From IMG/VR virus record IMGVR_UViG_3300034110_001238: DNA of 64,000 nt; one strand, written 5' to 3'. The notes under the pieces are model-generated. The model ran no database searches. It saw nothing but the letters and a program-made list of their open reading frames with translations, and was not told the origin of the DNA. The position numbers and the translations under genes are program-made. This stretch comes from an uncultured virus (IMG/VR IMGVR_UViG_3300034110_001238). Its lineage: Duplodnaviria > Heunggongvirae > Uroviricota > Caudoviricetes. This document shows positions 2,410 to 39,147 of the stretch, piece by piece (positions within the stretch are counted from its first letter, which is position 1; the number at the start of each line of letters is the position of its first letter).

Positions 2410-4761
2410 TTAACTTGGTGAGTTTCTATTTTTTCTTGGTTTTACTACAACTGAAAGATCAGGTCTTGATGTCAAGAACTTTTCTCGCAACGTAACCAAA
2501 TCCAATTCACGGTCTTCTTTTGACATCTTTTTAACACCGTCTAAAAACTCAATCGCATGGGTTTTGTCATCGTCTTTAATATTCAAAGAGCTAACCAAAG
2601 CATGTAGATCAGTTTTAACACCTTTGACAGCATCCACATTGATTTGGTTTACACAATCACTCATAGACTTCCAAAATTGATAGTAAGGAAGCTTAACCAT
2701 AAACATGCTAGATCCTTCAACTACAAAACCTTCCATGTGTCTTTTTGTTTTGAAAGCTGATTCATTAGTCAGTGCATTAAAAAACTTTTCAAAACCTTCA
2801 AAGTTATTAAAGCTTACAAATTTTTTCTTTGCATCAAAAGCTTCAAAATGCCCAGCAAAGGCTTCCAAGTTTTCATAAGTCAATTGTGTTAGAACAACAT
2901 CACGTTTCACTACCGCCAATAATACAATAGAACTCTTTTCTGGCTTAATGATATTTGATTCATTCTTAGCATCAATGACTTCAAAAATATAGTTAACATT
3001 GTGTTTATTTGCAAACACTTTCATAAATTCAAGTTCGCTTGATTTAAGATTGCTCAAAATCAATTGTTTGAAATCTTCTGCTTCAGCGGTATCAATACCA
3101 TATTTAGATGTAAACACCAATGAAGTGTTTTCAACATCATACCCAATCATGGCTAAGCGACCATCTTCTTGTTCAAATACATTCAAAGCCCCAGTTTCTT
3201 TTGCTTTGATAGCATCTAATGTATTATCAGCCACATCTTTTTCATTTAATTCATAAAATTTATCAAAACCTCGTGTGACGATATCCCCTGTTTTATTGTT
3301 CACGACAAGTCCACGAATCTTAACAGACGATTTCTGGATGTTTGATTCAACGACATCATGACTAAAATTAAATGTAGATAAATGTGGTTTTGAGATAGAT
3401 ACAGTTTCCACCAATAATTTATTGTCTCTCAAATCCTGAAGCAATTCCATACCACTCTTATGACCATCTACTTTACGGTTTAAAAAATGAGCAAGAGCAC
3501 CTTCTGGTTCAGCATTACCAAACATACCCGCTTCTTTTTCCATTTTAAGCACTTCTTCTTTGTTAAATACTTTATTGGTAATGTAGACTCCATTGAAGCC
3601 TTCGCGGCTTACTCTTAACACCGGCAAGCTACCACCGTATTCAACATCAGCTTCCAGTGCAAAGCTTTTAGGATAACTATTGAAATCTAGTTTGTGTTGA
3701 TTTCTATGACCATGAACCTGATACCATTCATTGTCTTTATTTTGTTCATTAAACTTACCATCAACGTCATAACTGTATGGGCCATAACCACGCATATATT
3801 CATCATCAGCCAAAAGACGTGGAAATTCAGGAACAGCCGTCAAACCAGCATGTGTGGTCATGATTTTTTTTCCATTGTATTGAATAAAGCTAAATAACTG
3901 CATTTTACGATACAATTCTTTCATATCTTCTTTTGTAAATCCTGCTTTTTCAAGTTGTGGCAATGTTTTATTCATAAATTCATCGGGTGGTGTGTAGATA
4001 TCATGACTGTAGTTATACATATGCTTCTCATGATTACCAGCAAGAATTAATACGTTAGGGTATTCAAGATATTTTCGAACAAAGTGAAGGCACTTATCGT
4101 TTTCAATGCCACGATCAAGATAATCACCGACAAAAATATAAAATTCATCTTTTTTGAAACCGCCTTCCTTTTCAAAATATTTTTTCAATGGATAAAATGA
4201 ACCTTGAAGATCACCGATGTAATGGATCTTCTTGTAACCACTTAAATCAATCATTAAGTCTTCTGGTGAAGCTTTAACAAACTTAATAGCAGCTTCTGGT
4301 GTAATAATTTTCGTCATGTCATTGAATGATGCATTCTGAAACAATTCGTAGTTTCTATCAATCGCATCTTTTGGCAATCTTTTGTAAGGTTCACGTTGAT
4401 CGTTACGAGCGTAATAAAATTCAATAGGTTGCAATGGGAATTGAACCACACGATAATCATAATCAAATTTTTGCAAAAGGTCCATATAAGAATCAATCGC
4501 TTTCTGGTCTTGGTTAAGATTGTCAATAAAGAGAACACCACCCATTTGAAGTCTCAATTCAAAGGCTTCCATAAATTTACCAAAAACCAAATCTTCTCGA
4601 TTGTTGGATAATACAAGGCGACCATCCATATCTGTTGCAGCTCCTGCATAAATATGACGAATAGCATCAAGAGATAAACTATGAGCATCTAATCCATGTT
4701 CTCTAATAAAAGTTGATTTACCAGTCCCCGGCATCGCTGATAAAAAGTAAACTGTTCTCAT
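2410..4761 (-). CDS. Pnkp-like protein: P-loop kinase + calcineurin-like phosphoesterase + Rnl1-like ligase domain
   Basis: AMPGTGKS; GDLQG, GDYLDRG, GNHE, HAG, HGH; RGFDKF, IFEVI, EGFVV, KLPYY. Confidence 0.85.
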   Translation of the reverse strand: MRTVYFLSAMPGTGKSTFIREHGLDAHSLSLDAIRHIYAGAATDMDGRLVLSNNREDLVFGKFMEAFELRLQMGGVLFIDNLNQDQKAIDSYMDLLQKFDYDYRVVQFPLQPIEFYYARNDQREPYKRLPKDAIDRNYELFQNASFNDMTKIITPEAAIKFVKASPEDLMIDLSGYKKIHYIGDLQGSFYPLKKYFEKEGGFKKDEFYIFVGDYLDRGIENDKCLHFVRKYLEYPNVLILAGNHEKHMYNYSHDIYTPPDEFMNKTLPQLEKAGFTKEDMKELYRKMQLFSFIQYNGKKIMTTHAGLTAVPEFPRLLADDEYMRGYGPYSYDVDGKFNEQNKDNEWYQVHGHRNQHKLDFNSYPKSFALEADVEYGGSLPVLRVSREGFNGVYITNKVFNKEEVLKMEKEAGMFGNAEPEGALAHFLNRKVDGHKSGMELLQDLRDNKLLVETVSISKPHLSTFNFSHDVVESNIQKSSVKIRGLVVNNKTGDIVTRGFDKFYELNEKDVADNTLDAIKAKETGALNVFEQEDGRLAMIGYDVENTSLVFTSKYGIDTAEAEDFKQLILSNLKSSELEFMKVFANKHNVNYIFEVIDAKNESNIIKPEKSSIVLLAVVKRDVVLTQLTYENLEAFAGHFEAFDAKKKFVSFNNFEGFEKFFNALTNESAFKTKRHMEGFVVEGSSMFMVKLPYYQFWKSMSDCVNQINVDAVKGVKTDLHALVSSLNIKDDDKTHAIEFLDGVKKMSKEDRELDLVTLREKFLTSRPDLSVVVKPRKNRNSPS

Positions 4762-11330: not shown

Positions 11331-12095
11331 TTAAATCAACAAAATATCTAACAGTGTTTTCTCTTCTGGTGTCATTCGTTCCCAAAACAAATGAAAGTTC
11401 GCTAAGGTTATCTGTGTGCTATCAAACATATTTTCTTCTAGCAGTGATATCTTTTTACTGGTTGCTCTATTTAATATCTGAACCACATTTAATTGATTAC
11501 CTTCAAATTCAATATAGTCAGGATATGTTTGTTTAGATTCATCATTATAGTCATCATAACAAATATGAACAGTTTTTTTATCATTTTTAAAAAGAGACGC
11601 AATAATAAATTGATCAGGAGCATATTTAAAACCAACATCTACACGAATTAAGCTTGGTTTATCTAAAACTAGATTACCTGTTTGTCTAATTTCGAAGTGT
11701 TCAAAAAACGGAACATCAACGGTTTCTGGATACAGATTATATTGTTGTGCTGCATCACTGTAATAACTTTGAAAGGAGCTTTCATAATTTAAATCTGCTT
11801 TCTTAATATACTCCATATTACTTTCAGTATTTTTAATCCAATATTTTTCTTTAACATTTGTATCATAAACATTAATAATTAAAATCAATTCATCAAAAAT
11901 TTGAAAGTATAATTTTGTTAAATTTTTAAATTGTTGAAAACCTGATTTTATAAGCAAATCATAAAATAATTCTGAGCGATGACTTTCAAAACAGACAGTA
12001 GTCGCTGGTGTTCTTAAATAACGAAAAAGCGTTTCTTTTTCTGTCTCGATATCAACAAACAATAAGTGTATATCGGTATTTTCCAAATCCATCAT
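11331..12095 (-). CDS. hypothetical protein, tandem paralog family A
   Basis: Shares GFKY..D and ITLxNFHLFW with neighbours. Confidence 0.8.
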   Translation of the reverse strand: MMDLENTDIHLLFVDIETEKETLFRYLRTPATTVCFESHRSELFYDLLIKSGFQQFKNLTKLYFQIFDELILIINVYDTNVKEKYWIKNTESNMEYIKKADLNYESSFQSYYSDAAQQYNLYPETVDVPFFEHFEIRQTGNLVLDKPSLIRVDVGFKYAPDQFIIASLFKNDKKTVHICYDDYNDESKQTYPDYIEFEGNQLNVVQILNRATSKKISLLEENMFDSTQITLANFHLFWERMTPEEKTLLDILLI

Positions 12096-12136
12096 ATAAG
12101 AATCCTCATTTTAAATATTTTTAAATATGTAAGCGA

Positions 12137-12916
12137 CTACACCATTAACATTTCAATCAATGTTAGTTGTTCAGCAGTGTAACGTTCCCAGAAAAGGTGA
12201 TAATTATCAAGTGTAATATGAGCATCAAATTCATCACGAACATTCATCATCGACATCTTTTTCTGATTCTTTGGATTAAATATTATTAAATCGACCAGTT
12301 CATCATTAATAAACTGAATAAATTCGGCATACATATACTGACAGTTAGGTGTATAGGTATCATATTGAATTTGTATACGTTTATCCGCTCTATCAAAAAC
12401 AGAACCAAACATAAATTTATCTTGACCATATTTAAAACCTAAATCTAATCTAAGCAGTTTCGGTGTTTCATAAGCTGACCGAACTAGATAATTAACGTAA
12501 AAAGGCATATCTAAAGATTCTGGAAAGAGTTTATGATTAAAGACTTCACTATCGCTATGAAAATCTTTAAATGAACCATTATAAGCCTTTTTATTACTAA
12601 ATGATTCTACCGCTTTCAAGTTCGCTGTAGAGTTGTAAAGATAATATTTTTCTCTCATTACAAAATTATCGACACTGGCTTCTAAGTAAACAACGAAAAT
12701 ATACGCTCCTAAAACTTGAAAGTAATGTGGAGTGTCAGCCGTCTTAATTTTTGAAAAACCAGCGTTGCTAAAAACATTGTCTAGCATTTCATAATTGTAG
12801 TTAATAAAAGCAACACACACATCTGTTTCATACACATGGTTAGAAAATTCGTTCGCATCAAAGGTATTAATATTTACAGTGATAAGCTTCATCTCATTGT
12901 TTTTTAAATCAATCAT
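12137..12916 (-). CDS. hypothetical protein, tandem paralog family A
   Basis: GFKYGQD, ITLDNYHLFW. Confidence 0.8.
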   Translation of the reverse strand: MIDLKNNEMKLITVNINTFDANEFSNHVYETDVCVAFINYNYEMLDNVFSNAGFSKIKTADTPHYFQVLGAYIFVVYLEASVDNFVMREKYYLYNSTANLKAVESFSNKKAYNGSFKDFHSDSEVFNHKLFPESLDMPFYVNYLVRSAYETPKLLRLDLGFKYGQDKFMFGSVFDRADKRIQIQYDTYTPNCQYMYAEFIQFINDELVDLIIFNPKNQKKMSMMNVRDEFDAHITLDNYHLFWERYTAEQLTLIEMLMV

Positions 12917-12926
12917 TATTCAATCC

Positions 12927-13685
12927 TTATATTGCAGACATTTCAACAAGAAGTTTTTGTTCTGGTGTAAAATCATTCCAAAATAAATGAAAGTTATCCA
13001 AAGTAATAGCAGTGACATCTATAATATCAGAATCCTGTGTGATATCTAAATTTATTTTTTTTGTTTTGTTGATTAATCTAGCAACATTCATGCGGCCAGC
13101 AACAAATTCAATAAAATCAGAACATAAATGATCAAATTTATCAACATAATTTGTATAACTTATGTGGACATAACTGCCTTTCCGATGAAAAATTCTAACT
13201 GACATCATTTTATCTTTTTCGTATTTAAATGAAAGTACAATTTTATTAATTTTAATTTGTTCATCAATGATATGAGTAACATCAAACATTTCATTAAATG
13301 GAGTTTCCAAGGTTGTATCATAAAATTGATAAATACTCTCATTGATACAATCTAAAGATTCCAAGGGATCATAGGATTCCTTAAAATTATTTTCAATATA
13401 ATTAAGATTTCCGTCAGTTAATTGAACCCAGAATTTATCCCTAATATAGAAATCTTCTACATGAACTAGAAGTATCTTTCCATTAGTAACCTTATAGTGG
13501 ATAGTTCGTAATGTTGAACTGATGTCTTTAAACCCATGAAAAAGCAAAATATCTTTAATAATAGATTCATCTTCATAAAAATATACGGTCGTACCAATGG
13601 TTGTCAACGCCGTCATGAAAATATCGTTAGGTAGACTTTTAGTAACGAATAAAACATTAGGTTCTATGTTTTTAATATCCAGCAT
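12927..13685 (-). CDS. hypothetical protein, tandem paralog family A
   Basis: SFKYEKD, ITLDNFHLFW. Confidence 0.8.
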   Translation of the reverse strand: MLDIKNIEPNVLFVTKSLPNDIFMTALTTIGTTVYFYEDESIIKDILLFHGFKDISSTLRTIHYKVTNGKILLVHVEDFYIRDKFWVQLTDGNLNYIENNFKESYDPLESLDCINESIYQFYDTTLETPFNEMFDVTHIIDEQIKINKIVLSFKYEKDKMMSVRIFHRKGSYVHISYTNYVDKFDHLCSDFIEFVAGRMNVARLINKTKKINLDITQDSDIIDVTAITLDNFHLFWNDFTPEQKLLVEMSAI

Positions 13686-13760
13686 GATAAGACCTCATTA
13701 GAATGCCAGTATTATAGCACATTCCATGTAGAGATATCAATAAAAAATAACCCTATACGT

Positions 13761-14531
13761 TTATTCAATCAGCATTTCAATAACTGTTAAAGTTTCTTTA
13801 TTAATTTTTTGGAAAAATAAATGATAGTTATCAATGTTGACATGACTGGTATCAATTAATGAATTTAGGTTGGTTGATTTAACAGATCCTTTCTTGTTTT
13901 CCACTGCATAGGATATTAATGTTCCATATTCAGAGAATGTTAAGTCTGTTACAATTAGGTTATTGTTGTCTTCATTTGAAATATATTGAACATCAAACAT
14001 GCCGTCCATCCAAACTTGTTCAATACGGTATTTTAAATCTTGATATTTAAATACACTATACGTCACACCCATATCCAGATGCTCAGGAAAATCAAAAACT
14101 TCTTTATAGGCTTTTGTGTTACTTGTTATATAAAATGCATTTCCAAGCAATGTTTCTTCGGAGTCACCAACCGTTGATAAAAGTTGAAGAGCGTTCTCAC
14201 GATTTAAGCTCTTAATGATATTAAGATTTCGTTCATTGTTTAAGATGTATGATTTTGATGATATATAAGATTTATTTGTGTTATTTAAACGTGCTATGTC
14301 AATTAATAGGATGTAATTGTCAAAAGATTTAAAAAGATATTCACTGGATTCTAAATTGACAATAGAGATAAAGCCAGCTTGTTCTAAAAGAGATGACTTT
14401 ATTACATTGTCATCAAATACTGCAGTTTTCCCAACTTTGAAAATGATATGCTCTAATTCATCAATGGTGAGAGGTGCAGCGTATCGTATTCGATTTTTCA
14501 ATTTTTGCTCCTTAAAAAAAATGAAGGTCAT
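13761..14531 (-). CDS. hypothetical protein, divergent family A member
   Basis: FKYQD, VNIDNYHLFF; GGAGG RBS before 14531. Confidence 0.75.
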   Translation of the reverse strand: MTFIFFKEQKLKNRIRYAAPLTIDELEHIIFKVGKTAVFDDNVIKSSLLEQAGFISIVNLESSEYLFKSFDNYILLIDIARLNNTNKSYISSKSYILNNERNLNIIKSLNRENALQLLSTVGDSEETLLGNAFYITSNTKAYKEVFDFPEHLDMGVTYSVFKYQDLKYRIEQVWMDGMFDVQYISNEDNNNLIVTDLTFSEYGTLISYAVENKKGSVKSTNLNSLIDTSHVNIDNYHLFFQKINKETLTVIEMLIE

Positions 14532-14554
14532 TTGACCTCCATTCTTATGTTGTT

Positions 14555-15556
14555 TTAAATAACTTCGTGATATTTGAGTTCTTTCTTTAAGTAACAATAA
14601 AGAATAGGAGCGGCAATAAGCCCAGTGACACCAAATATAGATTCCATTATCAACATTGCAACTAAGAGTTCAAATGCTTTAGCTTCTATTCTACTACCGA
14701 TAATTTTAGCATTCAAGAAGTATTCGAATTTATGTATGAAAATTAAATAAGCAAAGGCACTGACACCTACATACGGTGAAACGGATAAACCAACAAGCAA
14801 TACAATCGCATTCACAATCAAGTTACCCGCAATAGGGATTAAACCGATAACAAATGTCAAGATGATGATAGTTTTTGCGAATGGGAAATCAACACCAAAG
14901 AGCGGCATAGCAATAAGCAAGAACAATGCAGTCATTACAGCATTAAAGAGTGCAATACCTGCTTGTGCAACCATTACATGTTTGAAAGACTCAATTAAAT
15001 GTGAATAACGTGTTTTTAGTGAATCAAGAAACATCTTATCAGTTTTAACATAATCACTAGCAGCAATCATAATACCAATAATCATACCCAAGATCATAGT
15101 AATCAACGTATGAGTTGCACCACGACTAAATTCTCTTAGTACAAATAGATTTTCTTTCATGAAATCAACAATACTGACTTTTAGTTTATGAATATCTTGT
15201 GGGAAGAATCCTGATATTTTTGGCGGTAAATCTTTTATTGTCTTATCAAGCACTGTTGTGATTTCATTAACAATCATGTCTGGATTACTAACAGTCTTAT
15301 AGAGCCAAGAGAATGAATACATCGAGATAAGTGTTAAAAAACCTATAATAATAAGAGATATGACGACAGTAGAAACAAACTTAGACATATTTCCAAGCTT
15401 CATATACTTATTCATCATGTCTTCTGAAAATCTCATCATAAGAAATGTAACCATACCTGCGAGTAATGCGGGTAGTAAAGATATCTTCATAATCGTTATA
15501 AACCCTATTACCATCAGGCATATAACACCAACGTCTACTTTTTGTCTTAATTGCAT
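14555..15556 (-). CDS. AI-2E (PerM-like) family transporter
   Basis: Multi-TM; GLIPIAGNL, HKFEYFLNAKIIG, FGVTGLIAAP. Confidence 0.85.
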   Translation of the reverse strand: MQLRQKVDVGVICLMVIGFITIMKISLLPALLAGMVTFLMMRFSEDMMNKYMKLGNMSKFVSTVVISLIIIGFLTLISMYSFSWLYKTVSNPDMIVNEITTVLDKTIKDLPPKISGFFPQDIHKLKVSIVDFMKENLFVLREFSRGATHTLITMILGMIIGIMIAASDYVKTDKMFLDSLKTRYSHLIESFKHVMVAQAGIALFNAVMTALFLLIAMPLFGVDFPFAKTIIILTFVIGLIPIAGNLIVNAIVLLVGLSVSPYVGVSAFAYLIFIHKFEYFLNAKIIGSRIEAKAFELLVAMLIMESIFGVTGLIAAPILYCYLKKELKYHEVI

Positions 15557-15716: not shown

Positions 15717-16520
15717 ATGCCAGAATTACCAGAAGTCCAATGCGTAGTGAACTCACTCGCTAGCATAGCAAACAAAAAAATCAAAAATGTTGAAGTCTAC
15801 GATAATAGACTGCGTGAACCTGTTCAACCCAATCTAGATAAATTATTAGATGGTCGAACTATTAAGAATGTCGAACGTCGAGCTAAATGCATTATTTTCA
15901 ATCTGGACAAAGGTTCTATTGTCGCTCACTTAGGTATGACAGGAAAATTTCTTATCCAACCAGAAAAGATTGATGATAAATTTAATCGAGTAGCGATACA
16001 GTTTGAAGACGGTTCATATCTCGTCTACAATGACATTCGTAAATTTGGCTTCATTACCTATGAAAATACACCAACCGATAACAAATTTGTAAAGCATCTG
16101 GGTATAGAGCCTTTAACTGACGCTTTCACAGGGGATTATCTTTATTCCTTATCAAGAAACAACAGAAAGAATATCAAGCAGTTTTTACTGGATCAAAAGT
16201 ATGTGGTAGGGCTTGGTAACATCTATGTGATTGAGTTAATGTATATCTGTGGCATAAGTCCGTATTCAAAAGCAATGGATTTAACGCTAAAACAATCAGA
16301 GATGTTGGTAAAGGAAACTAAAGACATTTTAAACAAGTCTATTATAGCAGGTGGTTCCTCTATTTCCGATTACCGTGACGCTTTTGACCAAGAAGGGAGT
16401 TTTCAAGATAATTTTCATGTGTATGGTAAGAAAGAAGATTCATTAGGTCATGCAGTGACCAGAATTAAACAAGGTGGTCGTGGCACCTATTACTGCCCTA
16501 TATGTCAAAACTGTCCATAA
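15717..16520 (+). CDS. mutM: formamidopyrimidine-DNA glycosylase
   Basis: N-terminal PELPEV, HLGMTG, GLGNIY, terminal CPICQ (first Cys pair of the zinc finger absent). Confidence 0.95.
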   Translation: MPELPEVQCVVNSLASIANKKIKNVEVYDNRLREPVQPNLDKLLDGRTIKNVERRAKCIIFNLDKGSIVAHLGMTGKFLIQPEKIDDKFNRVAIQFEDGSYLVYNDIRKFGFITYENTPTDNKFVKHLGIEPLTDAFTGDYLYSLSRNNRKNIKQFLLDQKYVVGLGNIYVIELMYICGISPYSKAMDLTLKQSEMLVKETKDILNKSIIAGGSSISDYRDAFDQEGSFQDNFHVYGKKEDSLGHAVTRIKQGGRGTYYCPICQNCP

Positions 16521-17298: not shown

Positions 17299-17372
17299 GC
17301 ACCATCTCCATTATATTAACATTTCTATTATCTTATGATGATTGAAATCAAAGTCAACGAGCACGAAATCAT

Positions 17373-17401
17373 TTGACTTTGAAACGAACCTTTGATAAAA
17401 T
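17373..17401 (+). promoter_or_regulatory. promoter P1 of Leu leader
   Basis: TTGACT-17bp-TAAAAT with extended TG. Confidence 0.7.
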
Positions 17402-17425
17402 ATAAGAATTAACGAGGACGAAATT

Positions 17426-17488
17426 ATGTTCACAACTATTCGATTATCACTGCTACTCTTAAGCTCACTATTACTTAGCTTGGGCTAG
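17426..17488 (+). CDS. Leu-rich leader peptide MFTTIRLSLLLLSSLLLSLG
   Basis: GAGGA RBS; 9 Leu codons of 20, covering TTA, TTG, CTT, CTC, CTA and CTG. Confidence 0.8.
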   Translation: MFTTIRLSLLLLSSLLLSLG

Positions 17489-17498
17489 CATCTATTTG

Positions 17499-17594
17499 TC
17501 TGCATTTTGGACAATTAGATTGTCCAGATGCAGATGACCTCGAATATAAAAACTCGCCTCATTTCGCATCTGGACCCCAAAAGGGTCTTTTTTT
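17499..17594 (+). promoter_or_regulatory. attenuator-like alternative hairpins and intrinsic terminator
   Basis: Hairpin 17499-17534; alternative pairing TCCAGATGC(17523-31)/GCATCTGGA(17566-74) overlapping terminator GACCC-CAAAA-GGGTC-T7. Confidence 0.75.
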
Positions 17595-17684
17595 ATGGGC
17601 GAATGTCTAGGGTTAACTACAACTATAAATAACGTAAATCATTGATTTAAAAGGAAAATATTTTAAAATATTTTAAAATAATTG

Positions 17685-17713
17685 TTGACAAAGAAGAAAA
17701 GAGTTGGTAAGAT
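17685..17713 (+). promoter_or_regulatory. promoter P2 of tRNA array
   Basis: TTGACA-17bp-TAAGAT with AT-rich upstream region. Confidence 0.75.
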
Positions 17714-17765
17714 AGTAAACATGAAGAGTGAGGAAACAAACAAACACTCTTAAAGAAATAAATAT

Positions 17766-17850
17766 GCGGATGTGGCGAAACTGGTAAACGCGACTGTCTC
17801 AAACACAGTTTCTATAATGATTGTGAGTTCAAGTCTCACCTTCCGCACCA
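17766..17850 (+). tRNA. tRNA-Leu(CAA), slightly divergent
   Basis: Cloverleaf, ACTGT-CTCAAAC-ACAGT, one T-T mismatch in acceptor, ACCA end. Confidence 0.85.
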
Positions 17851-17949
17851 AATAAAGATTTAAAATTGGGTTGCTCCGGTTCCCACTGGAAACTTTGAAA
17901 CATAGTAATTATTAGCTTGTAACTCACTATTATCAAAGTCAAACCCCTG

Positions 17950-18033
17950 ATGAGTATGATGTAATGGTAGCCATAATGTCTTCGCTTAGACATGCCCCAT
18001 AAAGGCGTAAGGGTTCGAGTCCCTTTACTCATT
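17950..18033 (+). ncRNA. tRNA-like RNA with aberrant 8-nt anticodon loop, no encoded CCA
   Basis: ATGAGTA/TACTCAT acceptor, D arm, ATGTC-TTCGCTTA-GACAT, long variable arm, AAGGG-TTCGAGT-CCCTT. Confidence 0.65.
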
Positions 18034-18040
18034 AAGATAT

Positions 18041-18124
18041 GCGATTGTGGTGGAATGGTATACACGTTGGTCTAAGAAGCCAATGCCGCAAGGATTGAGA
18101 GTTCAAGTCTCTCCAATCGCACCA
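18041..18124 (+). tRNA. tRNA-Leu(AAG)
   Basis: TTGGT-CTAAGAA-GCCAA; full cloverleaf; ACCA. Confidence 0.9.
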
Positions 18125-18156
18125 GATTTATAGTAAGATATGTAGCTACAACATAA

Positions 18157-18240
18157 GCCCCGATGGCGGAATGGTAGACGCGGCGGATTCAAAATCCGTT
18201 TCCGAAAGGAGTGGGAGTTCGAGTCTCCCTCGGGGCACCA
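18157..18240 (+). tRNA. tRNA-Leu(CAA)
   Basis: GCGGA-TTCAAAA-TCCGT; ACCA. Confidence 0.95.
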
Positions 18241-18262
18241 AATTGATGTAAAGAAATATCAC

Positions 18263-18346
18263 GCGGAAGTGATGAAATGGTAGACGTGCTGGCCTTAGAA
18301 GCCAGTGTCGAGAGACGTGTGGGTTCGAGTCCCACCTTCCGCACCA
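18263..18346 (+). tRNA. tRNA-Leu(TAG)
   Basis: CTGGC-CTTAGAA-GCCAG; ACCA. Confidence 0.95.
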
Positions 18347-18350
18347 GATT

Positions 18351-18500
18351 GCTTAAATGATGGAATGGTAGACATAGGGTGATAGCCCTGTCATTACAGG
18401 TTCGAATCCTGTTATTAGTATCTTACTAATATGGCGGAACGGTAGACGCGATGGACATTGAGTCCATGACTTGTAGGTTCGACTCCTACTTTAAGCGACA
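18351..18500 (+). ncRNA. double (domain-swapped) tRNA-like RNA with two D arms and two T arms
   Basis: GCTTAAA(18351-57) pairs with TTTAAGC(18490-96); internal TATTAGTA-TCT-TACTAATA hairpin lies between T arm 1 and D arm 2. Confidence 0.75.
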
Positions 18501-18506
18501 AATTAT

Positions 18507-18590
18507 GCGTTAGTGGTGGAATGGTATACACGCTGGTCTAAGAAGCCAGTGCCGAAAGGATTGTGAGTTCGAGTCTCACCTAACGCACCA
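18507..18590 (+). tRNA. tRNA-Leu(AAG)
   Basis: CTGGT-CTAAGAA-GCCAG; ACCA. Confidence 0.9.
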
Positions 18591-18601
18591 AATTTAGATA
18601 T

Positions 18602-18687
18602 GCCCGAATGGTGAAATTGGTAGTACACAGGAGACTTAAAATCTCCCGCTGAAAGGCGTGTCGGTTCGAGTCCGACTTCGGGTACCA
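18602..18687 (+). tRNA. tRNA-Leu(TAA)
   Basis: GGAGA-CTTAAAA-TCTCC; ACCA. Confidence 0.95.
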
Positions 18688-18701
18688 AATTATGAGTTAC
18701 T

Positions 18702-18786
18702 GCGGAAGTGATGAAATGGTAGCACATGCTGGTTTCAGAAACCAGTGCCGCGAGGCGTGTGGGTTCGAGTCCCATCTTCCGTACCA
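18702..18786 (+). tRNA. tRNA-Leu(CAG)
   Basis: CTGGT-TTCAGAA-ACCAG; ACCA. Confidence 0.95.
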
Positions 18787-18797
18787 GATTTAGATAT

Positions 18798-18883
18798 GCC
18801 CGAATGGTGAAATTGGTAGTACACAGGAGATTCAAAATCTCCCGCTGAAAAGCGTGTCGGTTCGAGTCCGACTTCGGGTACCA
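18798..18883 (+). tRNA. tRNA-Leu(CAA)
   Basis: GGAGA-TTCAAAA-TCTCC; ACCA. Confidence 0.95.
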
Positions 18884-18901
18884 GATTGTACATGTGTTTA
18901 T

Positions 18902-18986
18902 CCCCGGATGGTGGAATTGGTAGACACAGGAGACTTAAAATCTCCCGCCGAAAGGCGTGCCGGTTCGAGTCCGGCTCCGGGGACCA
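18902..18986 (+). tRNA. tRNA-Leu(TAA)
   Basis: GGAGA-CTTAAAA-TCTCC; ACCA. Confidence 0.95.
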
Positions 18987-18990
18987 GATT

Positions 18991-19088
18991 TAATTCAATA
19001 TCGAAGGTTCGAATCCTTTTCTCGTGTTTGCACGGGGTGGTGGAGTGGTAGACACGTTTGCTGAAATGCATTCTAAAATATTGAATTA
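18991..19088 (+). ncRNA. circularly permuted tRNA-like RNA (T arm - closed acceptor - D arm; YrlA-like topology)
   Basis: GAAGG-TTCGAAT-CCTTT, TCTCGTG-TTTG-CACGGGG, TG, GTG-GAGTGGTAGA-CAC, closed by TAATTCAATAT/ATATTGAATTA. Confidence 0.75.
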
Positions 19089-19097
19089 CTTTTTTAT

Positions 19098-19181
19098 GCC
19101 CGAATGGCGAAATGGTAGACGCGGGGGACTTAAAATCCCCTTCCTTCGGGAGTGACGGTTCGAGTCCGTCTTCGGGCACCA
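19098..19181 (+). tRNA. tRNA-Leu(TAA)
   Basis: GGGGA-CTTAAAA-TCCCC; ACCA. Confidence 0.95.
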
Positions 19182-19216
19182 ACTTTATGTTTTATTTCTT
19201 ACAAAGGTATTTAAAC

Positions 19217-19561
19217 ATGACAAACTCAGCCAAAGGTAAAATTGTTATCGTTAATTTGTATGACAATCGTTATTGGAATATCTTCCTTGATGGCGAACTG
19301 GTTGCAGAGCCACATAAAGAAGATTTTACTGATTATGTCTTTAAACGTTCTATTCGAAAAGAATGGGCCGATATTGCTGGTGTTGATGAAACTGATTTGA
19401 GTTACAGTTTAATTGATTTATATGAACATGAAGATAGTATTCCTGATTATGATGCCAATGATTTTGAAGACTATCAAGATTTGATAACCTGTTGCAAAAA
19501 TAATAATATAGATTTTATCTTTGAAAATGTTGATTTAAACTATATTGAAAAGAAGTATTAA
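19217..19561 (+). CDS. small acidic hypothetical protein inside the tRNA array
   Basis: AAGGT RBS before ATG 19217; the longer ORF call overlaps a tRNA. Confidence 0.7.
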   Translation: MTNSAKGKIVIVNLYDNRYWNIFLDGELVAEPHKEDFTDYVFKRSIRKEWADIAGVDETDLSYSLIDLYEHEDSIPDYDANDFEDYQDLITCCKNNNIDFIFENVDLNYIEKKY

Positions 19562-19568
19562 TGTCTAT

Positions 19569-19652
19569 GCGGAAATGGTGGAATGGTAGACACGCTGGTC
19601 TTAGAAGCCAGTGCCGAAAGGCGTGTGGGTTCGAGTCCCACTTTCCGCACCA
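19569..19652 (+). tRNA. tRNA-Leu(TAG)
   Basis: CTGGT-CTTAGAA-GCCAG; ACCA. Confidence 0.95.
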
Positions 19653-19666
19653 ATTAAATCATAATT

Positions 19667-19695
19667 AAAACTGTATATTGTATACAGTTTTTTTT
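19667..19695 (+). terminator. intrinsic terminator ending the tRNA array
   Basis: AAAACTGTATA-TTG-TATACAGTTTTTTTT. Confidence 0.75.
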
Positions 19696-19785
19696 GCTTT
19701 TTAAATGATTAAAAGAAATGATTGTATAATTATCCCTTTTGTATTATAATAATATAGTTAACCAATATAATATAATGAGGATTAA

Positions 19786-23019: not shown

Positions 23020-24150
23020 TTATAGTTGTTGTAATTCTTCGATACTGACTGTTTTCGACGTGTTTGTTTCTCTGTTCAACACTTCATATTGATTGTTAAC
23101 AATACTCTTGTTACTGACAATAATACGATTGCTGACACCAATCAATTCACTATCATTGAACTTATTACCTGCTGAGATATTTCTATCATCTAACAAGACT
23201 GAATAACCTTGTTTCTTTAATGATTGATAAAGACCATCAGCGACTTCTTTATTCTTCTCATAATCAATAGCCGTTATAATGTAATCAAAGGTATTGAAAG
23301 CTGCAGTGCCAAAGAAACCTTTTTCATCACGTTGTTTTTCTAATAAAGCCATCAATGTTCTGGATACACCAATACCAAAGCATGCCATATTCACATGTTG
23401 TTTGATATTATCCAATAAGCCCATTTTTTCAGAGTAGTGAATACCCAAGTTAAAGATGTGTCCTATTTCAAGGTTTTTGCTACCATCTTCACCGATATCC
23501 TCACCAAACTCACTGATACAACGGAACTCTTCTGACGCTATACCACCCATCTCACCCACATCAGATCCTTGAATATGAAATTCTAATCCTAAACGTGTAA
23601 ATATTTTGATATAGGCTTCTTTCACTTCATTGTAAGTCGTCACAATATTCTCTTTGCTATTAGAGAAATGATAAGCATCTGACATTAAAAACTCACGACC
23701 ACGCACTAAACCAGATTTAGCTCTTAACTCATCTCTATATTTATTACCAATTTGAAACATCTTCAAATTTGTTTTCGTAAAATTGTAGTAAGACTTTACA
23801 ATGTTAGTGATGGATTCTTCACATGTAGCACTCAAAACAAGCTCTTTGCCAGCCCTGTTTTTTAATTTGAATAATTCTTCACCGTATTGGTCATATCGGC
23901 CCGTTTCTTTCCATAAATCAGCGTCTTGAATTAAACTTAAACGCATTTGTGAAAAGCCAATCTCTGATAATTCATCTTCGATGATTCGTTCTATCTTCTT
24001 CTCTAAGATATAACCCAGTGACAAAGTGGAATAAATGCCAGATGAGTCTTGATTAAAGAAGCACGCTTTTTTAGTTAAGTCTACCAAGTTCAATGATTGG
24101 TTATCTTTAGCGAATGAACTGTTGTTAAAAAATATGTTTGAAAATTTCAT
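23020..24150 (-). CDS. proS: prolyl-tRNA synthetase, short form lacking the INS editing domain
   Basis: LWKETGRY, ATCEE, KYRDELRAKSGLVRGREFLMSDAY, EIGHIFNLG, MACFGIGVSR, LLDDR anticodon-binding domain. Confidence 0.93.
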   Translation of the reverse strand: MKFSNIFFNNSSFAKDNQSLNLVDLTKKACFFNQDSSGIYSTLSLGYILEKKIERIIEDELSEIGFSQMRLSLIQDADLWKETGRYDQYGEELFKLKNRAGKELVLSATCEESITNIVKSYYNFTKTNLKMFQIGNKYRDELRAKSGLVRGREFLMSDAYHFSNSKENIVTTYNEVKEAYIKIFTRLGLEFHIQGSDVGEMGGIASEEFRCISEFGEDIGEDGSKNLEIGHIFNLGIHYSEKMGLLDNIKQHVNMACFGIGVSRTLMALLEKQRDEKGFFGTAAFNTFDYIITAIDYEKNKEVADGLYQSLKKQGYSVLLDDRNISAGNKFNDSELIGVSNRIIVSNKSIVNNQYEVLNRETNTSKTVSIEELQQL

Positions 24151-24210
24151 GATGTGTATCCTCTTAAATTGATTTATTTTATTGTGTTGTAATAGTTTGT
24201 TTTGAGCAAT

Positions 24211-24233
24211 AAAAAACGCCCATATTGGGCGTT
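24211..24233 (-). terminator. attenuator terminator upstream of proS
   Basis: AACGCCC-AATAT-GGGCGTT-TTTT on the minus strand, ~60 nt before the proS start. Confidence 0.8.
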
Positions 24234-24260
24234 AAGGTCAATTTAAAAGTAAATAGAGTC

Positions 24261-24323
24261 TTAGACGCCCAACATGAGCGGTAGAGGTCGAATAGTTTTG
24301 AATAATGCAATATTACTTTTCAT
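24261..24323 (-). CDS. proS leader peptide MKSNIALFKTIRPLPLMLGV
   Basis: AGGA RBS; CCT and CCG codons just 5' of an 11-nt segment complementary to the terminator 5' arm. Confidence 0.75.
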   Translation of the reverse strand: MKSNIALFKTIRPLPLMLGV

Positions 24324-32263: not shown

Positions 32264-33106
32264 TTAAATTTGTTCCATTTCTAAGACTAAAACATAGTCG
32301 TCAAAATTATCAGCTCTAATCAAATCACTTAATATTGGGAAATCTACAAAACATTTTTGTAATTCAACCAATCTAGTTGAAGTTAATGATTGAAAATGTT
32401 CATTCTCAAAAAGTATCATAAATTTACTGTAACTATTAGTACGATTACCAACAAATGCTGACAAAAGATTTGATAGTGAAATGGCTGAACCTTGTGATGT
32501 AAGACCTTGCACTACTGTAAAACCTTGCGAATTAGTAATTTGACTCGTTTTTTCATCACTCAAAACATATTCCAGCTTACATTGATCCTGTTTAATCTTA
32601 TAGGAACATTCTATACGACCAGAAATTGATTTGTTTTTAGAATGCACATCATGCATTGCCGCCAATGACAGTCTATAATAGCGATCAATCATAAAATAAC
32701 TTTCTGGATGATATTTTATAAAATTAAGCAACTCATCTTTCTCGCCATAAAAAGAAACAATAATTCTTAAAATATTACCATCTTGATAATAAACTTGTCC
32801 CTGAATAGATTTATTATAGTCATTATACTTCTTATAAAACAATGACATTTTTTTAGCCGTTGTTTTTTTTATATTAAATGAATAATTGTAAACAGTAATA
32901 GCAGATGACTTAAAAGTATTTGTATTTTTCCAATTATTTTTATTAATTTTCGCTTTATCTGGAATAGGATCATCTTTTCTGACACTTAACGAAAAGCAAT
33001 CAACTAATAATGTTTGTGCCGCAAAAGATTTAATAAAATTAAAGATACGGCCTACTGCAACTTCATTTTTATCAAATGAACTAATCATTCTTGGTTGATA
33101 CTTCAT
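32264..33106 (-). CDS. hypothetical protein (C-terminal MxxI motif)
   Basis: Ends VLEMEQI. Confidence 0.75.
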   Translation of the reverse strand: MKYQPRMISSFDKNEVAVGRIFNFIKSFAAQTLLVDCFSLSVRKDDPIPDKAKINKNNWKNTNTFKSSAITVYNYSFNIKKTTAKKMSLFYKKYNDYNKSIQGQVYYQDGNILRIIVSFYGEKDELLNFIKYHPESYFMIDRYYRLSLAAMHDVHSKNKSISGRIECSYKIKQDQCKLEYVLSDEKTSQITNSQGFTVVQGLTSQGSAISLSNLLSAFVGNRTNSYSKFMILFENEHFQSLTSTRLVELQKCFVDFPILSDLIRADNFDDYVLVLEMEQI

Positions 33107-33107
33107 G

Positions 33108-33346
33108 TTAAATCTCCATCATGTTGTATAAGTCAATTTTTTCTTTATAACTCGATCCAGCAATCTCAATATGATTCTTTTTAAAATATTTATCAAGATA
33201 GTCCTGAACAACTAATAAAAAATTTTCACAATTGCTTTCTCTTTCATCTACTTCACTGTAGTAAGTCATTTTAAACTCATAAGTCACTTCTGATATCGCA
33301 TATATAACGATTTCTGTGCCTTAATTTCGAAATTAATTTTTTTCAT
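33108..33346 (-). pseudogene. internally deleted / frameshifted paralog of the 33347 gene
   Basis: MKKINFEIK start is out of frame with ISEVTYEFK...YKEKIDLYNMMEI*, which aligns with the neighbour's C-terminus. Confidence 0.65.
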
Positions 33347-33949
33347 TCAAATCACAATCATGCTGTAAAGATCGAGTTTACGCTTGTAGTCAGCACCACT
33401 CACATCGACATCTGTTTTAGCAAAGTAATCATCAAGATGGCGATCCACATAAGAAATATAATCGGTACAGCTCTCAGACTGACCATTTTCTTTGACATTA
33501 AATGAGATTTCAAACTCGTAGCTCACATTGCTAATTTTATGACGAAGAATACCACGCTCATCATGCACTTGATCAACATCACATTTAATAAGCAAGTAAG
33601 GTTTACCATTGTAAGATGCTTTTGTGATTTGCTTGAAAATTGGCAAATAGTCTTTTGCTTTTTTAATATGATTTTTAATAACACCACTATTAATCGTCAT
33701 CCCATTAGCTTTATTAAACCCATTATCTAAAGGAATACGAACAAACAACGAAAGATTTTCAATTTGCTTAGTGTATTTAAAATCCATGACCATAATACGA
33801 AGATCGTTGGATGAAAGATAGTTCTCAGTATTGTAATAAATGGTGAGATCTTTTTTACCATAATAATAAGTAGTGCGGCCTTTTTCAACCGTTAAATCAA
33901 AATAAGCTTGAAAAGTATTAAGGAACTTATCGCTATCAAATGTTTTCAT
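33347..33949 (-). CDS. hypothetical protein (C-terminal MxxI motif)
   Basis: Start MKTFD after AAGGT RBS; ends LYSMIVI. Confidence 0.75.
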   Translation of the reverse strand: MKTFDSDKFLNTFQAYFDLTVEKGRTTYYYGKKDLTIYYNTENYLSSNDLRIMVMDFKYTKQIENLSLFVRIPLDNGFNKANGMTINSGVIKNHIKKAKDYLPIFKQITKASYNGKPYLLIKCDVDQVHDERGILRHKISNVSYEFEISFNVKENGQSESCTDYISYVDRHLDDYFAKTDVDVSGADYKRKLDLYSMIVI

Positions 33950-34019
33950 AGTAGTTTTACCTTCTCTATAATTTTCTAATGACATATTATAGCAAATTCT
34001 TAACAATAAAGCTACTAAT

Positions 34020-34652
34020 TTAAAAGTTAGCTGACAATTTATTTGCAATATTATAGAGCCATACACGCTCATTCATACTGAGTTGTTCGTAGTGATGCTT
34101 GTTGATATAGAAGTTTGATTTAAGCTTATCATCAACGTGTTTAAATATATTTTGTATACTGACTATCTTGTAACCACTATACAATCTATATTGTACTTGA
34201 AAATCAAAATGTATGTCTTCTAAAAGATAAGTCAAATTTCGATGAATGTCAGTGGTAATTACCAGATCTGCTGAAATTAGTAAGTTAGACGTATAATAAT
34301 CCTCAAACAAATCAGTTTTACTTTTACCAGCAATTTCTAATGAATGGTATACAGGTAGATATTGCTTGGTGAGTTCAATGCCAGCCAGAATTTGTAGATT
34401 GTCAATCGGATAGTTTAAAACAATATTTTTATTGATAATTTCAAAAGGTATTTTTAAGCTTACTTCATTTTTACTGTAATTCTCATTGTGTCTTAAAGAA
34501 GCTTCAAACAACACCAAATCATCCGATTTACGGTTACATGAAATAAAGTTTTTATCATCATAGTAGCCTGAAAATCGGTTATGTTCTGGTAGTTTTATAT
34601 CTATTTCTGATTGAATATCAATCATGAATTTATCATAATCAACGTATAACAT
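34020..34652 (-). CDS. hypothetical protein, probable paralog of 33347
   Basis: Shared DxDKF, IP and YLP pattern. Confidence 0.7.
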   Translation of the reverse strand: MLYVDYDKFMIDIQSEIDIKLPEHNRFSGYYDDKNFISCNRKSDDLVLFEASLRHNENYSKNEVSLKIPFEIINKNIVLNYPIDNLQILAGIELTKQYLPVYHSLEIAGKSKTDLFEDYYTSNLLISADLVITTDIHRNLTYLLEDIHFDFQVQYRLYSGYKIVSIQNIFKHVDDKLKSNFYINKHHYEQLSMNERVWLYNIANKLSANF

Positions 34653-34661
34653 GAAAATTCC

Positions 34662-35372
34662 TTAAACATTCAACATAGGCAGTAATTTATAATCCATTAA
34701 TGTAATTTCACTGACAGGTTTATTTAACATCTTAGCGACATATTTAAAGAATTCTGTTTTAATCTCATCAATTGAATCCCATCTCTCACAAGAAAAGCCA
34801 ATATCAGGATGTTGAAACTCATATCTTACGTTTTGAACCATCTCACATGTTTTGGTGCAAATGCCATAAAATATTTTAATAGTAAAATGTTTTTGGTTGT
34901 AAATATCTTCTTCGAATAATCTCACTGTAAAACGATACTGATTACCTGACCAGTAAAAATGGTCTTTAAGATCTTCCAATGAATTAACAGAATAAACAAT
35001 GTCTTTACCCAAAATGAAAGCATACATTAATCTAAATTCATTAATAACCTGATTAATATGTTCAAAATCTATTTTTGGAGCCTTTGAAAAAATCTCAAAG
35101 AAACGATCAAAACCAGTTTCTGAATTGATATCTATATCTATGTAATCTTCTTTATGATTATACTCACCCATAAAATATGAACCATAAAAAGGTTTATCTG
35201 GATCATCATAACTTAATGCAAAACCAGATTCTTTTGCATAAAACTCAGAAGCCCAAGGTAAATTAACCATTTTTTCAAAAACTGGTGTAATAATCTCTCT
35301 GGTTTTATTAGTATTTTCTATTTGTTCCTCAACCAATTTCATAATGGCTGCTTCGTCATATTCCATAATCAT
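34662..35372 (-). CDS. hypothetical protein, paralog of 37466
   Basis: DYIxIxxxSE..F..FE.F, F..YAF..G..I; ends LLPMLNV. Confidence 0.8.
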   Translation of the reverse strand: MIMEYDEAAIMKLVEEQIENTNKTREIITPVFEKMVNLPWASEFYAKESGFALSYDDPDKPFYGSYFMGEYNHKEDYIDIDINSETGFDRFFEIFSKAPKIDFEHINQVINEFRLMYAFILGKDIVYSVNSLEDLKDHFYWSGNQYRFTVRLFEEDIYNQKHFTIKIFYGICTKTCEMVQNVRYEFQHPDIGFSCERWDSIDEIKTEFFKYVAKMLNKPVSEITLMDYKLLPMLNV

Positions 35373-37465: not shown

Positions 37466-38149
37466 TTAAATATTTACCATTCTCAAGACCTTGTAATGTG
37501 CCAAAGTCACATCAGCTTTATCAATACCCAGTCGATGTGTAATGAATCTTTCAATAAAAGCATTTTCAAATTCTGGGTAATTACCTTTTCTAATAGCATG
37601 ATTATCTTTTGAAAATTCTCTAGCAGTAGAGTAATTATAAGAAATATGATTATTCAACATAATCGGTTGAGTATCAATACCAATACCTATACCGACTGAA
37701 AAACGAGAATCTTCCATGCCCGTTTCTTCAACAAGATGATGATAGTTGGCTCCATCATGAATATAACAATACATCAAATCAGCAGCAGTATTTATATCTT
37801 TTAGATTAATATTACGACCAAAAGCAAACGCATACAAAAATTTAAAACGATTAATATTTCTGTTTAATGTTTCATAGTCAATAGGTGTCGATTGTGGAAA
37901 AAGCTCAAACAACTTATAAAAAGCTTTCTCGCTTTTTAATTCAATACTAATATAATCATTGTAATAATATCCTAAGAAGCTAACGCCTTTAAAACGTCCT
38001 TCTGAGATATTGACATCATAACGATTACCAATATACTCGATGTTTACAACAGCATCTTCCGACATGTAAGGTAAAAGAGCCTCACGGAAAATATCCATGT
38101 GCTCAATCATTTCAGGTTCATCAGGTTCATAAATTTCATTAACAATCAT
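37466..38149 (-). CDS. hypothetical protein, paralog of 34662
   Basis: Ends VLRMVNI. Confidence 0.8.
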   Translation of the reverse strand: MIVNEIYEPDEPEMIEHMDIFREALLPYMSEDAVVNIEYIGNRYDVNISEGRFKGVSFLGYYYNDYISIELKSEKAFYKLFELFPQSTPIDYETLNRNINRFKFLYAFAFGRNINLKDINTAADLMYCYIHDGANYHHLVEETGMEDSRFSVGIGIGIDTQPIMLNNHISYNYSTAREFSKDNHAIRKGNYPEFENAFIERFITHRLGIDKADVTLAHYKVLRMVNI

Positions 38150-38150
38150 A

Positions 38151-39089: not shown

Positions 39090-39147
39090 TTAGTTCTCCT
39101 ATTTTAGCTGCAATTATACAACATACTGTAGTTTAAATCAATTTAAA

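Follow-up and report, generated by a model that had tools for sequence, protein, structure and literature searches.

A leucine-only tRNA array, probably under leader-peptide control, in an AT-rich element classed as an uncultured virus

Leader-peptide attenuation is a textbook mode of control for biosynthesis operons. The leuL leader of enterobacterial leuABCD (Rfam Leu_leader), like trpL, hisL and pheL, combines a promoter, a short translated frame in which cognate codons form a run, hairpins that exclude one another and an intrinsic terminator, and in E. coli pheM-pheST places an aminoacyl-tRNA synthetase gene under such a leader-peptide attenuator. Here we analyze a 64,000-nt stretch of DNA (hereafter the window) from the uncultured virus IMGVR_UViG_3300034110_001238, assigned to Caudoviricetes in IMG/VR, in which the same components precede an array of tRNA-Leu genes at 17766-19652. 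We propose that this array is probably a functional single-isotype tRNA operon under Leu-codon leader-peptide attenuation, which grew by duplication and anticodon switching. The expected logic of the window leader is that of leuL, with ribosome stalling leading to read-through. It differs from leuL in standing before tRNA genes rather than biosynthesis genes, in carrying nine Leu codons of six kinds instead of a single-codon run, and in having an extra hairpin (1′) after its stop codon and a second promoter between its terminator and the genes. As in pheM-pheST, leaders ahead of the IleRS, AspRS and ProRS genes of the same element would switch a translation-machinery gene by the decoding of its own codons, whereas here the same device also precedes tRNA arrays and a Thr-Ile-Arg motif recurs in four of the five leaders. 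No published case of leader-peptide control of tRNA genes was found in the full-text literature, in which subscription journals are mostly not covered.

The array can also be set beside tRNA clusters described elsewhere. The Xanthomonas jumbo phage XacN1 is reported to carry 56 tRNA genes, covering all 20 amino acids (PMC5852040). Like clusters of this type, the window array is dense and co-oriented and belongs to a large AT-rich element; the usual phage clusters are mixed, whereas this array serves a single isotype, and its putative virus origin rests on the IMG/VR class and on jumbo-phage-like proteins. The tRNA array units of prokaryotes are defined as holding 20 or more tRNA genes with a density of no fewer than two per kb (PMC4758250). 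With 13 genes in 1.9 kb, the window array reaches this density and shows signs of mobility and turnover, but it falls short in gene number and serves one amino acid. Phage tRNAs have furthermore been reported to evade host nucleases via anticodon-loop changes (PMC10264068). The likeness to these lies in extra tRNA copies carried by a mobile element with RNA-repair genes nearby; the difference is that loop variation here is small, apart from an A37 in the tRNAs reading CUN codons, and that no target nuclease is known.

Eleven tRNA-Leu genes behind a leucine-codon leader

ARAGORN was run over the whole window and returned 13 genes, all on the + strand between 17766 and 19652, with none elsewhere. 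Eleven of the 13 are tRNA-Leu genes, with the anticodons CAA (three), TAA (three), TAG (two), AAG (two) and CAG (one), just as an earlier note made on this DNA from its letters alone had read them, and the Rfam tRNA model scores them at 51.4-62.9 bits against a gathering score of 29. All 11 carry a long variable arm, A73 and an encoded CCA, features that the note had also recorded, together with the conserved bases of the D and T loops. Two relatives were compared with the window: G001, a 181,270-bp IMG/VR contig in which these 13 genes recur in unchanged order and differ at 2 of 1098 tRNA bases, and L121, a metagenome locus with a 9-Leu version of the array, in which all nine Leu tRNAs likewise have the long variable arm and A73. 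These two features are the identity marks of LeuRS, and the eleven type-II tRNA-Leu together would read all six Leu codons.

When 20 Leu tRNAs were aligned, the 11 of the window with the 9 of L121, 18 of the 23 stem pairs proved to show compensatory two-sided changes, which indicates that the Leu genes are constrained and are neither decaying copies nor pseudogenes; orthologues in the window and L121 also differ by paired changes. The array is seen in three separate assemblies, and since its gene order recurs in G001 and its 9-Leu version in L121, it is not an assembly artefact. The same alignment bears out the note's remark that several anticodon-stem variants exist per anticodon: there are three for CAA and two each for TAA, TAG and AAG.

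Upstream of the array, on the same strand, lies a compact leader. Its promoter P1 (17373-17401; TTGACT, 17 nt, TG-extended TAAAAT), with 10 of 12 matches, is identical in G001 and L121 and is followed by a Shine-Dalgarno sequence, GAGGA (17414-17418), and a frame of 20 codons (17426-17488), MFTTIRLSLLLLSSLLLSLG, which starts 340 nt upstream of the first tRNA. Nine of these codons are Leu codons of all six kinds (TTA three times, CTA twice, and CTG, CTC, CTT and TTG once each). Under the codon use of the genome, at least nine Leu among 19 leader codons has a probability of 1.5e-5, and the presence of all six Leu codons in nine draws one of 0.038. Hairpin 1′ (17490-17520) begins 2 nt past the leader stop and competes with hairpin 1:2 (17496-17537), an anti-antiterminator of 19 pairs with a duplex energy of -24.0 kcal/mol. 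The antiterminator 2:3 (17522-17575) pairs 17522-17537 with 17559-17575 at -19.5 kcal/mol, including 10 perfect core pairs, and covers the 5′ arm of the intrinsic terminator 3:4 (17572-17595; duplex -10.2 kcal/mol), which ends in a run of 7 T. The locus thus shows the promoter, ribosome-binding site and short cognate-codon-rich frame of an attenuator, as well as mutually exclusive antiterminator and terminator hairpins, the latter with its U run.

The leader unit is unchanged in G001. In L121, the segment from the P1 -35 hexamer to the terminator has five base changes only, and the leader frame differs solely in its stop, TAA in place of TAG; the flanks are about 80-83% identical, and similarity stops just upstream of the -35 hexamer. 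A second promoter, P2 (17685-17713, + strand; TTGACA, 17 nt, TG-extended TAAGAT), lies behind an A+T-rich stretch about 50 nt before the first tRNA, P1 being 390 nt before it. Between P2 and the first tRNA, a 7-pair hairpin (17723-17751) may serve to process or stabilize the primary transcript; a second tRNA array described below has a hairpin of another sequence in the same place.

We infer that the leader is translated, that its pairings act as a switch and that the switch affects tRNA output. Transcripts from P1 would have to pass the attenuator before reaching the tRNA genes. Ribosomes stalling on the Leu codons would allow hairpin 1′ and the antiterminator 2:3 to form, and P1 transcription would proceed into the tRNA genes; a ribosome at the stop codon, or no translation at all, would leave hairpin 1:2 and the terminator in place. 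The element would in this way top up its own Leu decoding whenever charged tRNA-Leu is short, whether from codon demand or from loss of host tRNA. Because an attenuator responds to a single amino acid, or to the few that its leader encodes, the genes under its control must serve that amino acid, which would explain why the array is Leu-only. The leader and its switchable terminator, which the earlier note missed, offer a simpler reason for isotype purity than those it proposed.

To model the switch, a ribosome was placed on each Leu codon or on the stop as a masked stretch of 30 nt, and the best folds with and without the terminator were compared. When the transcript began at the ATG, or the Shine-Dalgarno/start region was occupied, the antiterminator was favored by +0.5 to +1.9 kcal/mol upon stalls at codons 7, 9-11 and 17, and the terminator by -7.1 kcal/mol once the ribosome stood at the stop and by -3.6 kcal/mol with no ribosome. 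Stalls at codons 12 and 16 also favored the antiterminator, only when the Shine-Dalgarno/start region was occupied. Hairpin 1′ formed with the stop-codon region free and was lost with a ribosome on the stop. Equilibrium folding therefore backs the classical attenuation logic for the Leu leader only conditionally, because the sign flips only with the Shine-Dalgarno/start region occupied or omitted. Co-transcriptional order, in which 1′ is made before segment 2, would help the switch.

The strongest support for the leader comes from its parallels at four other loci of the same genome. A second array in G001 (156104-158247) comprises five Ala-TGC, one Ala-GGC, two Arg-TCT, one Arg-CCT and two Met-CAT genes and one odd gene. 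At its head are a promoter, a Shine-Dalgarno sequence, a 13-codon leader with Arg-Ala-Arg-Ala (AGA, GCC, AGA, GCG), hairpins and a terminator, and a near-identical P2 module stands in front of both arrays. An amino-acid-specific leader would hence also account for an Ala/Arg array behind Arg-Ala codons. The G001 gene for IleRS is preceded by a leader with four consecutive Ile codons (L115 ~16385-16445, - strand), and that for a non-discriminating-type AspRS by one reading Asp-Asn-Asn-Asp-Asn (L110:6675-6746, - strand), both with promoter and terminator. In the window itself, a mini ProRS of 376 aa without editing domain (23020-24150, - strand) has a 20-codon leader with Arg-Pro-Leu-Pro followed by a terminator (frame 24261-24323, region 24190-24323, - strand). 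In four of the five leaders Thr-Ile-Arg immediately precedes the sensor codons, and three of these four spell it with nine bases that are identical or almost so. A survey of mini-ProRS loci is supportive only: a Pro-containing small frame lies 156-238 nt upstream in 21 of 21, as retained by a filter that kept only Pro or Ile-Arg frames and had no chance control, and under the same biased filter Arg-Pro occurs in 16 of the 21 upstream frames, including those of three Paraburkholderia genomes. The second array, whose locus spans G001 154458-158247 (L117:14458-18247), encloses a 177-aa frame and has an HNH homing-endonuclease-like gene (phrog_559) just upstream.

Composition and origin of the array

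Six of the Leu genes read UUR codons: tRNA-Leu(CAA) 1 (17766-17850; 57.6 bits), CAA 2 (18157-18240; 59.4 bits), CAA 3 (18798-18883; 51.4 bits), TAA 1 (18602-18687; 53.5 bits), TAA 2 (18902-18986; 55.3 bits) and TAA 3 (19098-19181; 60.4 bits). TAA 1 and CAA 3 are 96% identical and differ chiefly at the anticodon, TAA 2 is 86-89% identical to both, and TAA 3 and CAA 2 are more distant. The five that read CUN codons are AAG 1 (18041-18124; 58.2 bits), AAG 2 (18507-18590; 57.5 bits), TAG 1 (18263-18346; 58.2 bits), TAG 2 (19569-19652; 62.9 bits) and CAG (18702-18786; 52.3 bits). Among these, TAG 1, CAG, TAG 2 and AAG 2 are mutually 76-88% alike, and AAG 1 and AAG 2 are 88% identical. CAG and CAA 3 are missing from L121.

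Interspersed with these genes, and likewise on the + strand, are less regular pieces. A Gln(TTG)-like degenerate tRNA (18424-18499; 38.3 bits) has a mispaired acceptor stem and A33 and is poorly kept in L121. Next to it, a tRNA-like remnant (18351-18420) retains a D arm and a T arm without a proper anticodon arm, and at the matching G001 site it scores 28.4 bits, below the cut-off; broken tRNA pieces read off the sequence at 18990-19070, a T arm followed by a 5′ half, show 0 differences from G001. The Gln-like gene and the remnants carry Leu-type D arms. These dead copies, the body groups, and the gain and loss of genes relative to L121 identify the array as a birth-and-death family. One or two ancestral Leu tRNA genes would have undergone tandem duplication and anticodon switching, from TAA to CAA and from TAG to CAG or AAG, with decay of some copies.

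The remaining ARAGORN gene (17949-18034, + strand) is non-canonical: its anticodon loop has 8 nt, its variable arm is long and it lacks CCA; it may be a frameshift reader, a decoy or a remnant. It also occurs in L121 (17081-17164), with other loop letters and a shortened variable arm. A 114-aa frame inside the array (19217-19561, + strand) matches no Pfam, PHROG or PADLOC family, is missing from L121 and differs from G001 at 6 of 345 bases. Downstream of the last tRNA, an A+T-rich hairpin followed by a T run (19667-19696, + strand), read off the sequence, is a likely operon end; a scan requiring three G-C pairs missed this hairpin.

The CUN readers share an unusual anticodon-loop base. All five have A37 after G36, and a phage tRNA-Leu(TAG) that is 89% identical to AAG 2 carries G37. 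In the CUN-reading tRNA-Leu of bacteria, G37 is the site of m1G37, an expectation that the isoacceptors of the window do not follow. G001 encodes an RlmN/Cfr-like radical SAM enzyme (L116:9748-10629, - strand); that it might act on A37 is pure conjecture. CTY codons are read in the array by the AAG anticodon (18041-18124 and 18507-18590), with no GAG gene. Bacterial tRNA-Leu does not usually carry A34. A TadA-like enzyme was not identified, and the deaminase encoded at 458-1102 resembles a dCMP deaminase.

Competing explanations and the nature of the element

Several observations weigh against a leader-controlled operon. The genes behind the terminator have a promoter-like sequence of their own, P2, from which the array could be transcribed independently of the leader, so that the leader may supplement this transcription rather than gate it. 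The Rfam Leu_leader model gives no match, at its gathering score or at E <= 10. The three related sequences compared show zero changes inside the stems, and hence no covariation that would speak for or against the switch. Identity to G001 is about 99.5% over 17300-19655 and about 90% in the flanks, but within this block the spacers (2 differences in 298 bases) and dead pieces (0) are as conserved as the tRNAs; conservation was therefore dropped as proof of selection, and it may instead reflect recent exchange. With a free 5′ untranslated region, which pairs with the spacer after segment 2, folding favors the terminator in every state (-4.7 to -8.1 kcal/mol). For the Ala/Arg leader the terminator is favored in all states (-9.4 to -15.1 kcal/mol), and stalling shifts the balance by at most 5.7 kcal/mol. 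Taken singly, some of the other leader matches are weak (P = 0.18 for Asp/Asn, 0.08 for Pro and 0.07 for Ile). The 20 leader residues are, moreover, very hydrophobic and Leu-rich, and could form a small membrane peptide.

This last point raises the prospect that the 20-codon frame (17426-17488) is an independent gene, encoding a hydrophobic peptide such as a type I toxin, and lies beside the array by chance. The frame has its own promoter and terminator, its synonymous sites are invariant, and in the minimum-energy fold its Shine-Dalgarno region is paired to a 3′ segment far away, an arrangement that some type I toxin mRNAs share. We nevertheless hold this to be very improbable, as the four other leaders match the amino acids of their downstream genes and are not hydrophobic, the 2:3 pairing overlaps the terminator arm, and the frame uses all six Leu codons. 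The earlier note, for its part, had suggested that the redundancy hedges against anticodon nucleases or serves the TTA-rich codon use of an AT-rich element in a GC-rich host. In a version of the latter without feedback, dosage from P2 would offset scarce host tRNA for TTA, TTG, CTT, AGA and GCA, and the small frame would be unrelated; we find this possible but somewhat doubtful. The part of the suggestion that stands is that anticodon copies roughly follow the element's Leu codons (46,919 codons counted), with TTR at 62% served by 6 of 11 genes, CTY at 24% by 2 and CTR at 13% by 3. P2 directly precedes the array, the Arg-TCT/CCT and Ala-TGC tRNAs of the second array read A-ending codons, and TrxB (63-69% identity) and the mini ProRS (46-49%) have their nearest cellular relatives among gamma- and beta-proteobacteria, which include GC-rich ones. 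The choice of amino acid is another matter. Demand alone does not make it, because Leu (9.0% of codons) is about as frequent as Lys (8.9%) and Ile (8.3%), and the second array serves Ala and Arg, which are rare (4.5% and 3.0%). For the codons in heaviest use (AAA, GAA, AAT, GAT and ATT) the 181 kb seen encode no tRNA, whereas CTG, which at 5% is the least used of the Leu codons, is provided with a CAG gene, and leaders matched to five different downstream genes would go unexplained. Nor was a GC-rich or host flank seen: the window and G001 lie at 27-41% G+C throughout, the window maximum falling over the array.

On the nuclease hedge, varied bodies and stems would let some Leu tRNAs escape a sequence-specific nuclease while repair enzymes mend the rest, which as an explanation of the array we judge quite unlikely. 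Two or three stem variants per anticodon speak for it, as does the A37 of the five CUN-reading copies against the G37 of the related phage tRNA-Leu. So does a polynucleotide kinase-metallophosphatase-RNA ligase fusion of 783 aa (2410-4761, - strand; phrog_8238, E = 1e-125), which by its domains would be a one-protein tRNA repair kit and has relatives at 26-30% identity in 129 phage records, including Staphylococcus, Bacillus SPbeta-like and Lactobacillus phages. G001 adds RtcB, a second RNA ligase, a HAD domain of RNA-repair proteins and Pth2. However, loop variation is small, the three TAA copies share one anticodon loop and two of them one stem, and no nuclease targeting tRNA-Leu was identified; PADLOC models match only 2 of the 57 window proteins, in each case at domain level, and a bacterial Schlafen paper describes host and phage tRNAs as cut generally, not Leu specifically. 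A hedge is also compatible with the leader rather than an alternative to it: the RNA-repair genes are in keeping with a conflict over tRNA, and a device that senses shortage would also react when tRNA is lost. A different challenge concerns the replicon itself. The array could be the normal Leu tRNA gene set on the chromosome of some unusual bacterium, small in genome and AT-rich, rather than an accessory set of a mobile element, the IMG/VR virus label being false, and this we consider unlikely. The last 13.7 kb (L122) of a 1,859,102-bp metagenome contig are 100% identical to G001 52396-66114, so that the two, if one replicon, would amount to about 1.97 Mb or more, or else point to an integrated state. 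Mini-ProRS relatives lie on contigs of 0.45-1.36 Mb, GAPDH, TrxB, ClpA and OmpA are cellular-type genes, and no capsid, terminase, portal, tail or DNA polymerase family appeared among the proteins of the window and G001 (181 kb) with a Pfam or PHROG match. Yet only about 27-30% of proteins have a Pfam match (17 of 62 in the window, 31 of 104 in G001), the 181 kb hold no ribosomal or other core gene, and the aminoacyl-tRNA synthetase genes are trimmed forms. The clade is absent from 185,579 species genomes, in which the P2 pattern gave one chance match with no tRNA nearby and no mini ProRS was closer than 49% (Burkholderia and relatives). Several proteins have their best relatives in jumbo phages, one G001 protein in RsoM2USA, XacN1 and a 635-kb uncultured phage, and G001 is classed by IMG/VR as a provirus.

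The replicon may be a giant phage- or plasmid-like element, an integrated island or part of an odd small bacterial genome. G001 has a CheckV completeness of 58 and is colinear with the window at 82-98% identity. PHROG families were matched by 6 of 51 window proteins and 9 of 75 G001 proteins. Searches for close relatives gave only tRNA-sized matches in phage records, where 0 of 64 records covered 80% of the query and none did so in distant mode, and 2 matches in plasmids, both tRNA-sized, the clade being absent there. The 1,859,102-bp contig ends in a repeat beside an 8.5-kb G001 insert that encodes a 2309-aa protein. A 587-aa protein has ESM Atlas look-alikes in virus clusters at 0.91-0.92, a lead only.

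Gene expression is of bacterial type, since the regions upstream of frames hold AGGAG at 13-fold enrichment and are enriched in TATAAT and TTGACA as well. These enrichments, the encoded CCA and the intrinsic terminators led us to reject a giant eukaryotic virus, which Fpg, UvdE, AsnB, MGMT, aminoacyl-tRNA synthetase and ankyrin neighbors and frequent strand switches had suggested. Further window genes encode Fpg, a nucleoside deoxyribosyltransferase, TrxB, AsnB, GAPDH and UvdE. To these G001 adds IleRS (841 aa), the non-discriminating-type AspRS, RtcB, Pth2, the second RNA ligase, the RlmN/Cfr-like radical SAM enzyme, ClpA and OmpA-type proteins. An element-encoded LeuRS partner was considered and rejected: the 841-aa class I enzyme of G001 is an IleRS, and the 181 kb contain no LeuRS. 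Runs of three to six adjacent frames of about 210-310 aa without known family (11331-14597, 32264-35372 and 37466-40089; G001 103613-108623) may, from their lengths, be tandem paralogue families.

Implications for tRNA supply in the element

Taken beyond the Leu array, these loci suggest, tentatively, a family of giant AT-rich bacterial elements with a demand-sensing translation module, in which isotype-sorted tRNA operons and lone trimmed aminoacyl-tRNA synthetase genes would each be gated by a cognate-codon leader built on a shared Thr-Ile-Arg template. Such a regulon would detect the shortage or destruction of particular charged tRNAs and restore exactly those, and the CUN-reading Leu tRNAs, with A37 and A34, may dispense with the usual modification enzymes of the host.

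It has long been asked why tRNA genes are found on phages and other mobile elements, and the codons of the leaders described here would tell what this element senses. If the leader of the Leu array works as proposed, tRNA supply would be regulated by decoding speed, one amino acid at a time, which would explain isotype-sorted arrays. The leader would then be a compact natural sensor of charged-tRNA levels, testable with a simple reporter.

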